Source of the DNA: a virus | Strand: one strand, 5' to 3' | Virus record (IMG/VR): IMGVR_UViG_3300032770_000007 | Coordinates: 32,001 to 96,000 of that record | DNA length: 64,000 bases | In this document: positions 391 to 32,178 of the stretch, piece by piece | How positions within the stretch are numbered: the stretch's first letter is position 1 | Layout of the letters: the number at the start of each line of letters is the position of its first letter | The notes under the pieces: model-generated | Database searches by the model: none | What the model was told of the DNA's origin: nothing | What the model saw: the letters and a program-made list of their open reading frames with translations, nothing else | Translations under genes and position numbers: made by a program

Positions 391-527
391 TTATTGCCAC
401 CCATTAATACACCACATAACAAAAATGACTAGAAAAAGTGCAATAGCAAAAGCCTGAATGAAACCCAACAAATTCATAAAAAAATGATTAGTGGGTGTTT
501 CTTGTTCAGGTTGTTTACCAAAGTAAA

Positions 528-771
528 TCATTATTGCTCCCATTACCCGCGATTCTGGTCTATGCTATCATTTGTCTCAGTTATTTCTAACTGGCTTTTC
601 AGCTGCCCCAACCCGTAATCTCGCCGAGTAAGGTCATCAATCACTGTTTGGGTTGCTGCCTCGGATGTTGTGGTCACTGACTTTCATCTCCCACAGAGCA
701 TTTACCGTTACTCTAAGCAGTCGCGAAGTTCCTCGATGAATATTCACCGCGATAGCTCGGAGCAATAATGA
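528..771 (-). ncRNA. rnpB: RNase P RNA, compact (~244 nt)
   Basis: 13-bp P1 (528-540/759-771); P2 GCUAUC/GAUAGC; GAGGA-ACUUCGCGA pairs with ACCAGAA-UCGCGGGU as P4 with a bulged U; P15 CAACCC/GGGUUG; P18 with GAAA tetraloop followed by AGACAAAU. Confidence 0.85.
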
Positions 772-774
772 ATT

Positions 775-1008
775 TTAGTGTAACCTCCAATAACTCATTC
801 CATAATGGTTTTCCATGCGGCCATACATTGAATGGCCATGATACCAATATGTGCCATAATAAGGACCAGGAACCCATACGCCATTATACCAATAGCCATC
901 CATGCCCATGATAACTCCTGGTGGAAATACAACCTCTGATCTAACCATGGGTGGAGCAACCACACAACCAGATAAAATCAGAACCAATAAACCAAGCAAC
1001 AGTCTCAT
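775..1008 (-). CDS. putative small lipoprotein
   Basis: hydrophobic signal and LSGC lipobox; Trp/Tyr/Gly-rich tail. Confidence 0.6.
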   Translation of the reverse strand: MRLLLGLLVLILSGCVVAPPMVRSEVVFPPGVIMGMDGYWYNGVWVPGPYYGTYWYHGHSMYGRMENHYGMSYWRLH

Positions 1009-4998: not shown

Positions 4999-5418
4999 TC
5001 ACCACAATATTCATCCAATGGTACTGGTGGATGCTCCCATTGAGTATAGGGCGATCCGCTGGCATGTGCATAAATAACAGGTATAAGCGGATAGCGATGA
5101 CATCGTTTTGGAGCATCAGGAAAATCATCTGGAAATATTAATGACTTATCTTTCCTAGCAAAATGACAGTTTCCGCAACACCTAGACATTAGAATATATC
5201 AATGATAAGAAGAGTGATCTATGAACCTCGAACATTTACTTTATCCATCATATGAACTAAAGCACGAATGGTTTCTTCTGCTGAAAGATCAGTTTGCTTA
5301 ACCTGGTTTTCAACCAAGATAGTATAGACGTCGGGTCCATGCTCTTGTTCAAAATGAGTAGGACTAGAAATCACCCTAATCTTTCGGTCTGATGTTTCGG
5401 CGACTAGCATTCTTATCC

Positions 5419-8716: not shown

Positions 8717-8810
8717 GTTTCAAACTACCTCTTGTTCAATGAGGATCGCCTGCCAGCGACTATACAACACATAGGTGGCAGCCAGGATAAGTTGTATTAG
8801 AGTTTGAAAC
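8717..8810 (-). ncRNA. unassigned four-way-junction RNA with kissing loops
   Basis: 10-bp closing stem, three hairpins, loops CUGCCA and UGGCAG complementary. Confidence 0.55.
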
Positions 8811-8814
8811 ATTC

Positions 8815-8888
8815 TGGTAGTGAAGGATGGTTATGCTCCATCGTCTATGGCTTATGAAACCACCGCTCTCCTATTGAGCTACTTCACC
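8815..8888 (-). tRNA. tRNA-Met(CAT), elongator (Ile2 not excluded)
   Basis: loop TT-CAT-AA, CCA. Confidence 0.85.
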
Positions 8889-31693: not shown

Positions 31694-32178
31694 ATAGCCT
31701 GCCCATCAGTTACCCAATATTTGTAGTTGTGAAAAAACTGTCCCTGTGTTGCTGCTCCAAGAGGAGTGTTATAATATTCCTTGTAATAGTTCCAAAGACC
31801 ATTCAAATCAGTGGCAGAAGGTAATGTACCAGGTTTTCTGGCATAATGTACTCTGGCCATTGCGATGGCATATGGATCATTATTTATGAGAACTTCTGCG
31901 GTATTGTTTCCGCCTGCCAAATCTTTGATTTGTCCTGATAGATCATCATGATATTTGAGATAATTTGTCCAGATATCATCATGGTCCTCTTTTTCCATTT
32001 GAAATATGCCTCTAGCAGGACCATTGCTCTGAACTCTAAATGTTCCAAAGGCACTTTCCTGCGCACAGGTAGCCAATAGAAGTTCTTCAGCATTTGAGCT
32101 GTAAAGATTTAGTGGTTTGAGAGTTGATTCAATCAGATATCTTAAATTTGATGGAGTATATGGCAAATAGGTAGTCAC
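31690..32178 (-). CDS. endolysin, lysozyme-like fold
   Basis: TCAQES...GPARGIFQME...YYKEYYNT. Confidence 0.75.
   Translation of the reverse strand: MTTYLPYTPSNLRYLIESTLKPLNLYSSNAEELLLATCAQESAFGTFRVQSNGPARGIFQMEKEDHDDIWTNYLKYHDDLSGQIKDLAGGNNTAEVLINNDPYAIAMARVHYARKPGTLPSATDLNGLWNYYKEYYNTPLGAATQGQFFHNYKYWVTDGQAI

Follow-up and report, generated by a model that had tools for sequence, protein, structure and literature searches.

A putative size-reduced RNase P RNA gene in a T4-like environmental phage and its relatives on viral contigs

In cellular RNase P, the specificity domain of the RNA reads the tRNA elbow, and in the type A enzyme, as in Escherichia coli, the GGU of the internal loop L15 binds the 3' CCA of the tRNA. 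How small the specificity domain of a bacterial-type RNase P can be is a question that has so far been approached with engineered mini-RNAs and with the archaeal type T RNA. To our knowledge, the RNase P RNA has been treated as a strictly cellular and organellar gene. Here we describe a 244-nucleotide (nt) RNA encoded on the minus strand at positions 528-771 of a 64,000-nt stretch of viral DNA (hereafter the window; positions 32,001 to 96,000 of the IMG/VR virus record IMGVR_UViG_3300032770_000007, a contig of 125,827 bases estimated to be 69% complete). Judging from its sequence, we consider it likely that this is a phage gene for a size-reduced, type-A-derived RNase P RNA, predicted to mature phage precursor tRNAs (pre-tRNAs) together with the host protein RnpA. 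The original prediction for this locus had proposed a phage-encoded, minimised RNase P RNA, and that proposal is supported by an end-to-end match to the Rfam model RF00011, by a covariance model built without the window sequence, by a covarying family on viral contigs, and by T4-type genes in the window.

Among the nearest published systems is the minimal type T RNase P RNA of the archaeal Thermoproteaceae, described in PMC7191817. Type T RNA has an archaeal catalytic domain without a specificity domain, is encoded in the chromosome and acts together with proteins of archaea, whereas the phage RNAs appear to descend from bacterial type A and retain a small arm that is P10/11-P12-like. The RNase P-like RNA of camelpox virus, an orthopoxvirus, has a partial structural likeness to RNase P RNA and is reported to show no pre-tRNA processing in vitro (PMC3001073). 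It is, like the RNA described here, virus-encoded, and it is the sole virus-encoded RNase P-like RNA that we found in print; it differs in belonging to a eukaryotic virus and in being unlinked to tRNA genes. The third comparison is with the theta ribozymes (resembling that of hepatitis delta virus), which adjoin phage tRNA genes and are proposed to lessen the dependence of phage tRNA maturation on host RNases (PMC10879173). These are small self-cleaving RNAs of unrelated fold that act in cis on 3' trailers, unlike a trans-acting 5'-processing enzyme.

A full-text literature search, whose coverage took in few subscription journals and no supplements, found no description of a phage-encoded RNase P RNA, and within that coverage there is no published precedent for the phage rnpB genes that the original prediction thought might have one. 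RNase P is mentioned nowhere in the main texts (supplements being outside coverage) of the 2020 huge-phage paper (PMC7162821) or of two jumbo-phage overviews (PMC7824862, PMC13282480), and term look-ups in PMC11143913 and PMC7191817 found no phage-encoded RNase P RNA described.

Homology to RNase P RNA and a covarying viral family

Scanned against Rfam at gathering thresholds, the window yields no RNase P RNA and only 22 tRNA matches, and a search of the whole record with RF00011 gives nothing at E <= 0.001. When window positions 400-900 are scanned in E-value mode against all 4227 Rfam families, the sole meaningful match is the bacterial type B model RF00011, the best match within the RNase P clan, at a sub-threshold 32.4 bits (E 2.9e-7; cut-off 97). 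The match nevertheless runs end to end, with model positions 1-365 aligned to window 538-764 on the minus strand, and places P1/P2, P3, J3/4 with the P4 5' strand, P18, J18/2 and the P4 3' strand. The original prediction had staked its case in part on the alignment of the P4 regions by a covariance model, and RF00011 aligns both P4 strands. What the alignment lacks is most of the specificity domain, whose blocks are nearly all deleted (8, 10 and 15 nt aligned versus 22, 19 and 103 model positions). The fold itself is unusually stable: its minimum free energy (MFE) is -77.9 kcal/mol versus -60.1 +/- 4.5 for 200 shuffles, none of which does as well (z = -3.95).

Simple sequence comparison does not reach the relatives of this RNA. 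The window RNA has none by blastn among 50,697 GenBank phage records, and in the same set there is no match by megablast for the first 20 kilobases (kb) of the window, nor any for the RNAs of two relatives (loci L016 and L037). The neighbouring DNA ligase did not lead to relatives of the RNA either: the only locus reached through it is distant (26% identity) and lacks the RNA. We therefore rely on a pattern of core motifs (GAGGAA..UC, gap, AGA.A.AUGA, gap, CAGAA), which 82 stretches in IMG/VR match. In 36 of them at least 7 of the 8 P4 positions pair in the exact register of the window, and in 33 all 8 do, with strands as varied as AGGUCAGGA/UCCUGCCU, ACCUCUAGA/UCUAGGGU and AACUCCAAA/UUUGGGUU; by a rough estimate, chance would give under two P4-positive matches. 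The same pattern matches at least 120 stretches in bacterial and archaeal genome contigs, and among the matches listed six passed the P4 filter and five are plausible. P4 pairing was the filter by which relatives were chosen, which makes its pairing percentage circular, and the invariance of GAGGAA and J18/2, which belonged to the search pattern, is not independent evidence; the other helices were unselected.

A covariance model, R1, was built from 26 relatives with the window sequence left out. It finds the window RNA at full length (model positions 1-220 of 220) with 103.9 bits and E 1.2e-28, against a next best score of 10.7 bits in the 64 kb; the weak matches elsewhere (<= 10.7 bits, E >= 0.054) were treated as noise. 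Other full-length members score between 52 and 197 bits, and the whole record holds one copy. Across 85 sources (886,513 bases), the window and every one of the 36 P4-positive loci are detected with R1, and the remaining 46 pattern matches are all passed over; the model also finds the overlap of the window in L001 and a second copy in L046. In all, 209 fetched loci and four whole records were searched. A metagenome scan for the exact P4 strands of the window brings up three contigs, all of them full-length R1 matches (152-160 bits). The second copy in L046, a 488-kb viral contig, lies at 1888-2060 on the minus strand (173 nt, 82.1 bits), with about 320 nt between it and the full copy (2380-2614); its P3 is followed directly by the stub that replaces the specificity domain, without GAGGAA and the P4 5' strand, and it is either a paralogue that has degenerated or an RNA that serves a different role.

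The family extends to published phage genomes. By blastn, the L027 RNA has matches in three records of 'uncultured phage'. Each published record that was searched with R1 has a full-length copy: LR756501.1 (735,411 bases; 173.9 bits), whose copy Rfam does not detect, LR745206.1 (634,780 bases; 121.1 bits), and, reached independently of the blastn search, the Stenotrophomonas phage vB_SmaS-DLP_6 (hereafter DLP6; KU682439.2, 105779-106012; 112.2 bits). The DLP6 RNA scores 54.7 bits on the type A model RF00010, below threshold, and fills an unannotated gap between the coding sequence AAY80_165 and a tRNA-Arg gene, inside a tRNA array. Rfam, applied to 14 family members besides the window RNA, places one at gathering score and finds no RNase P match for eight at the E limits used. 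The reduced RNase P RNAs form a large phage family that is mostly missed by routine annotation. Among phages the reduced form is not unusual, contrary to the earlier view, and within this family it is the rule.

The catalytic domain is intact and its helices covary, whichever alignment is used. In the alignment fitted to the model (with P4 added as a pseudoknot), 91.2% of cells are paired versus 36-43% when the strands are slid by 1-3 columns, and two-sided changes occur at 45 of 54 pairs; in a plain MAFFT alignment that was not fitted to structure, 93.8% are paired versus 31-45%, and 25 of 33 pairs change on both sides. The observed covariation score is reached by none of 500 shuffles in either case. 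The MAFFT test took in P2, P4, P5, the arm and inner hairpin of the specificity-domain stub, P15 and P17. These data bear on the idea that the RNA is a decaying relic, a fragment of a host rnpB acquired along with tRNA genes and losing its function. That no cellular class A RNA is as short, and that its score stays under the Rfam threshold, would suit such a relic, as would the second copy in L046, which has lost J3/4 and the P4 5' strand; unlike pseudogenes, however, dozens of divergent copies keep their core helices by compensatory changes and keep their core nucleotides, and the record of the window holds a single intact copy. We regard decay as very unlikely.

Secondary structure and type of the window RNA

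As read from the sequence, the whole catalytic domain appears to be kept: P1-P5 with the bulged-U P4 pseudoknot, P15/L15 (GGU)/P16-17, P18, J18/2 and J2/4. The catalytic-domain layout of bacterial RNase P RNA that had been recognised at this locus is borne out by the sequence, by the RF00011 alignment and by the covarying family. The RNA runs from window 771 (its position 1) to window 528 (its position 244); RNA positions given below equal 772 minus the window coordinate, and all elements lie on the minus strand. R1 aligns over 538-763 and RF00011 over 538-764, and the 13-base-pair (bp) P1 extends the ends to 528-771. This duplex, at -20.9 kcal/mol, is formed by window 759-771 (RNA 1-13) and 528-540 (RNA 232-244), and is as first described. 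Although the register of P1 differs between family members, their own flanks form duplexes averaging -13.8 kcal/mol versus -3.9 +/- 2.6 for cross-paired flanks, the own-flank energy lies beyond the 5th percentile in 22 of 27 sequences, and the helix covaries completely in sequence.

Within P1, the P2 strands GCUAUC (751-756, RNA 16-21) and GAUAGC (564-569, RNA 203-208) form a helix that covaries and has all six pairs in 25 of the 27 MAFFT sequences, and the P3 hairpin CGGUGA-AUAU-UCAUCG (734-749, RNA 23-38), which aligns to P3 of RF00011, is paired in 97.6% of family cells, with two-sided changes at three of its four pairs. J3/4 (AGGAA) and the P4 5' strand occupy 721-733. That strand, A43 C44 U45 U46 C47 G48 C49 G50 A51 with U46 (window 726) bulged, pairs at 8 of 8 positions with the 3' strand UCGCGGGU (545-552, RNA 220-227), which confirms the bulged-U P4. 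The departure of P4 from the usual sequence with compensatory changes also stands: six of the eight pairs change on both sides in the family, where 99% of cells are paired, a figure that reflects the selection filter. GAGGAA is invariant in the family, as the search pattern demands. P5 (CUGCUU at 715-720, RNA 52-57, with AGGCAG at 656-661, RNA 111-116) has four inner pairs that form in 27 of 27 sequences, and all four covary.

The 53 nt between the P5 strands (662-714, RNA 58-110) are all that is left of the specificity domain, whose shortness had been pointed out before. They begin with a 6-bp hairpin specific to the window (AGAGUA/UGCUCU, 695-714, RNA 58-77), which precedes the stub arm GUGG-GA-(GAU GAAA GUC)-AGUGA-CCAC at 670-694. 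The arm is drawn by likeness to DLP6, L044 and L059, and its exact fold is tentative; an alternative pairing GG..AUG/CAUCC may form, and in R1 the stub is the least confidently aligned part of the window RNA, with a posterior of about 0.5. Across the family the stub is a 5-bp arm (for example GGUAG/CUACC) enclosing GA, a variable hairpin and a GUUAnnA-like strand, and both its helices covary; we infer that it is a remnant of P10/11, J11/12, P12 and J12/13. The usual receptor of P18, P8, is absent, or at best would be represented by the window-specific hairpin at 695-714.

After P5 come J5/15 (CAA, 653-655, RNA 117-119) and P15, which required redrawing. P15 had first been read as AACCC/GGGUU, a pairing that is the choice of the MFE fold and agrees with the Rfam placement in class B; the family does not uphold it, with A.G or G.G at one pair in 13 of 32 rows. 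As redrawn, CCCA (649-652, C120-A123) pairs with UGGG (607-610, U162-G165) in a type-A-like manner, and the middle pair varies across the family as AU (6), UA (6), CG (13), GC (7) and UG (1). Because P15 pairs in this way, G158-U161 (window 611-614) are left as an unpaired GGGU on the 3' side of the internal loop, as in type A; this L15 segment aligns with the RF00010 consensus CGGGUa and is a candidate docking site for the tRNA 3' CCA. It follows a P16/P17-like hairpin with the stem GUGAUU/GAUUAC (615-644, RNA 128-157); in the family P16 is paired in 98.3% of cells and P17 in 97.7%. The names P15, P16, P17, L15 and P18 are supplied by the RF00010 alignment of L016. Two sets of nucleotides that the search pattern did not contain show no variation: A118 and A119 of J5/15, within GCAA (38 of 38 rows), and G159, G160 and U161 of L15 (37 of 37).

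Between P15 and P18 stands an extra hairpin, GCU-GAAA-AGC (594-603, RNA 169-178), which most but not all family members have (85.9% of cells paired; three of three pairs covary). P18 itself, CAGUUA-GAAA-UAACUG (578-593, RNA 179-194), aligns to P18 of RF00011 and is paired in 94% of family cells. It is followed by J18/2, AGACAAAU (570-577, RNA 195-202), which matches the Rfam consensus AGAuAgAU, and, beyond the P2 3' strand, by J2/4 (553-563, RNA 209-219), whose ACCAGAA, including CCAGAA, is aligned to ACAaAA of RF00011. P2, P3, P5, the GAAA-capped P18 and the J18/2 and J2/4 segments are all present as originally listed.

The molecule has what RNase P RNAs of any type share, namely a P1-P2-P3 stack that closes it and a bulged-U P4 flanked by J3/4 AGGAA and an ACAGAA-like J2/4. 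Its resemblance to bacterial type A (rnpB, the M1 RNA of E. coli; RF00010) extends over P1, P2, P3, P5, P15, P16/17, P18 and the bulged-U P4 pseudoknot, the GAGGAA of J3/4, the GCAA of J5/15, the internal loop L15 with CGGGU, and the consensus of J18/2 and J2/4. The succession of P15, an L15 with GGU, and P16/P17, supported by covariation in the family, and the GNRA-capped P18 are type A features. Four of 11 relatives have RF00010 as their best match, with scores of 105.5 (L037), 84.9 (L041), 70.7 (L016) and 65.9 bits (L033), the first of which exceeds the cut-off of 100. For one relative (L075) the top model is the archaeal RF00373, at 40.7 bits and below its cut-off of 84, and the other six, tested together, have no RNase P match in Rfam at E <= 0.01. 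The window RNA does not reach the RF00010 threshold of 100 bits, and it departs from type A in its length (244 nt versus a 367-position model), in the replacement of P7-P14 by the 53-nt stub, in a P4 changed with compensation at six of eight pairs, in the extra P15-P18 hairpin, in a score far below gathering, and in being encoded by a phage rather than a cell.

With type B it shares the best Rfam match and a hairpin at the position of P15.1 followed by a GNRA-capped P18. Its score of 32.4 bits is one third of the RF00011 cut-off of 97, however; between P5 and the stub there is no sequence for P5.1, P10.1 is lacking as well, and in place of the type B hairpin P15 it has the P15/L15/P16 of type A. 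We rejected a type B assignment, since the covariation of the family supports the type A internal loop of P15, L15 and P16; the family appears, from its sequences, to descend from type A, although the best Rfam match of the window is class B.

Phage context, tRNA genes and protein partner

The DNA of the window is of phage origin. Of ten large ORFs (open reading frames), eight have matches among phage protein families; they include a ribonucleotide reductase, a primase, a DnaB-like helicase and a T4-type DNA polymerase whose identity to the polymerases of T4-like cyanophages does not exceed 45.3%. By these comparisons the source appears to be a T4-like environmental phage, with the RNA gene just after a tRNA gene cluster. 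Such a gene set, together with the presence of the family in the complete genome of the isolated phage DLP6, speaks strongly against the supposition that the RNA is a cellular RNase P RNA, of a bacterium with a small genome, that was mis-binned as viral. That supposition could appeal to three family records labelled 'provirus' by IMG/VR and to three short class A RNAs on contigs of bacterial metagenome-assembled genomes; we judge it extremely improbable. The three RNAs in question (L085, 3702-3942; L123, 1749-1997; L184, 2043-2277) are about 235-250 nt long, exceed the class A threshold (126, 141 and 109 bits, respectively) and carry a P4 of the canonical AAGUCCGGA type, with tRNAs in the vicinity of two of them. 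They represent either cellular RNase P RNAs of unusually small size or additional copies that belong to phages or prophages.

ARAGORN predicts 27 tRNAs in the window, of which 26 form an array on the strand of the RNA between 1230 and 15501. The array ends, on the minus strand, with Leu-UAA (1312-1396) and Thr-CGU (1230-1304), and the RNA lies about 460 nt downstream of this last gene. The spacers are A/U-rich and 5-8 nt long. Between tRNA genes, at 1401-2556 on the minus strand, are two overlapping ORFs of about 196 amino acids (aa) with HNH-like motifs discernible by eye, which could be homing endonucleases. The sole plus-strand prediction (Phe, without CCA; 8770-8851) overlaps a minus-strand Rfam tRNA (8818-8888, 57.4 bits) and is probably spurious.

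Co-location with tRNA genes is found across the family as well: at 21 of 32 loci there are tRNA genes in the fetched stretch, all on the strand of the RNA, the stretches being short (2-15 kb). A 3' CCA is encoded at the end of 25 of the 27 tRNA predictions in the window and of 93 of 244 tRNAs at family loci, where it is all-or-none per phage; a family rule by which the invariant L15 GGU goes with encoded CCA was dropped, since it holds in the window and not in the family. Individual counts are 26 of 26 in DLP6, 20 of 20 in L050 and in L077, 0 of 14 in L032, 0 of 21 in L046 and 1 of 28 in L041, with L212 also examined. The tRNA arrays of L077 and L041 contain, beside the mini RNase P RNA, a transfer-messenger RNA (tmRNA) gene, at 5000-5380 and 1-209, respectively.

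The RNA gene lies between two small minus-strand ORFs: upstream, 77 aa with a lipoprotein-like start MRLLLGLLVLILSGC at 775-1008, ending 4 nt before P1; and downstream, a hydrophobic 50 aa at 391-543, whose ATG lies within the P1 3' strand, so that excision of the RNA would cut the message. The region, once called ORF-free, indeed has no ORF of 60 aa or more inside it, but predicted ORFs of up to 54 aa overlap the RNA. This arrangement, with a 3' strand overlapping a start codon, is what one would cite for an active RNase P-type ribozyme whose substrates are mainly not tRNAs (the polycistronic transcript, tRNA-like elements or phage noncoding RNAs) and which controls neighbouring genes, as are the 11 of 32 family loci without a tRNA in the fetched stretch. 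The stretches are short enough, however, that tRNAs beyond their ends may have been missed; the loci that do show tRNAs have many co-oriented ones, and nothing in the sequence indicates a different substrate. We think this alternative improbable.

The mini RNase P RNA usually has no phage-encoded protein partner. Searches with the RnpA family of Pfam (PF00825) find none in the record of the window, none in 28 further family records, and none in four of five others, among which are the complete genome of DLP6 and two from IMG/VR with a completeness rating of 100%; the same search is positive in 10 of 14 control genomes. One record of the 34 that bear the family, LR745206.1, has an RnpA-family frame, of 115 aa (49 bits versus a cut-off of 22.3). 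This record, the only such case, encodes both the mini RNase P RNA and the RnpA-family protein, at the two loci L213 (76444-76752, plus strand) and L210 (502066-502272), and may thus encode a complete phage holoenzyme. That the record of the window has no RnpA gene fits the use of the host protein suggested in the original prediction.

The same finding can be read in another way, as the 33 of 34 records without their own RnpA leave the host's as the only possible protein partner. A catalytically dead or irrelevant RNA could then serve as a decoy, binding host RnpA or host pre-tRNAs and so diverting or throttling host tRNA maturation to the benefit of the phage. The reduction of the substrate-reading domain is compatible with such a role, and the camelpox virus RNA, reported to be without detectable activity (PMC3001073), is a cautionary precedent. 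A protein decoy, however, needs neither an invariant L15 GGU nor a compensated bulged-U P4 nor invariant adenines in J5/15; the genes lie inside co-oriented tRNA arrays, as expected of an enzyme made with its substrates; and one huge phage carries both the RNA and RnpA. On this evidence a decoy is unlikely.

Predicted function and its meaning for large phages

Under the reading that we prefer, that of a size-reduced RNase P RNA which matures phage pre-tRNAs, the RNA would be transcribed together with the co-oriented tRNA genes and small ORFs, excised from the transcript and folded around P4. It would then bind RnpA of the host, which is proposed as the partner because the phage record encodes none, and would cleave the short A/U-rich 5' leaders of phage pre-tRNAs at +1, with the acceptor stem and 3' end docked at L15. 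The outcome would be an extra, or host-independent, capacity for tRNA maturation during infection. For the family as a whole we lean, with some reservation, toward a distinct phage-specific class of RNase P RNA of type A descent, about 200-250 nt long, with a specificity domain consisting of one short arm, which is predicted from the sequences to be active in infected cells with host RnpA or with no protein.

Several observations weigh against this interpretation. The specificity domain is nearly gone and is the worst fit to R1 in the window RNA, from which weak substrate binding is predicted. The gene is squeezed between small ORFs without a promoter-like or terminator-like site of its own: a scan found none flanking the RNA on its strand, site counts being no higher than shuffle expectation, and the single sigma-70-like site is at 1120-1093. 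An encoded CCA does not generally accompany the L15 GGU, and in the ACAGAA segment C214 of the window takes the place of an A that is present in 37 of 38 rows. As the record is about 69% complete, a phage RnpA may lie in the missing part. Finally, the hosts own an RNase P, so that a second one would not obviously be needed.

The family amounts to dozens of natural experiments on the minimal specificity domain of a bacterial-type RNase P, and it indicates that the near-universal P4 sequence can be rewritten if pairing and the bulged U are kept. It also exposes an annotation gap, Rfam missing most members and the DLP6 copy lying unannotated in GenBank; because DLP6 and its host are in culture, function is directly testable. 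The phage version would add a ribozyme to the translation functions of large phages, beside tRNAs, tmRNA and tRNA-modifying enzymes. If our reading is correct, large phages, from T4-like phages to a 735-kb phage and the cultured DLP6, would have their own enzyme for tRNA 5' maturation, and viruses would for the first time be known to encode a trans-acting ribozyme that belongs to the core translation-maturation machinery.

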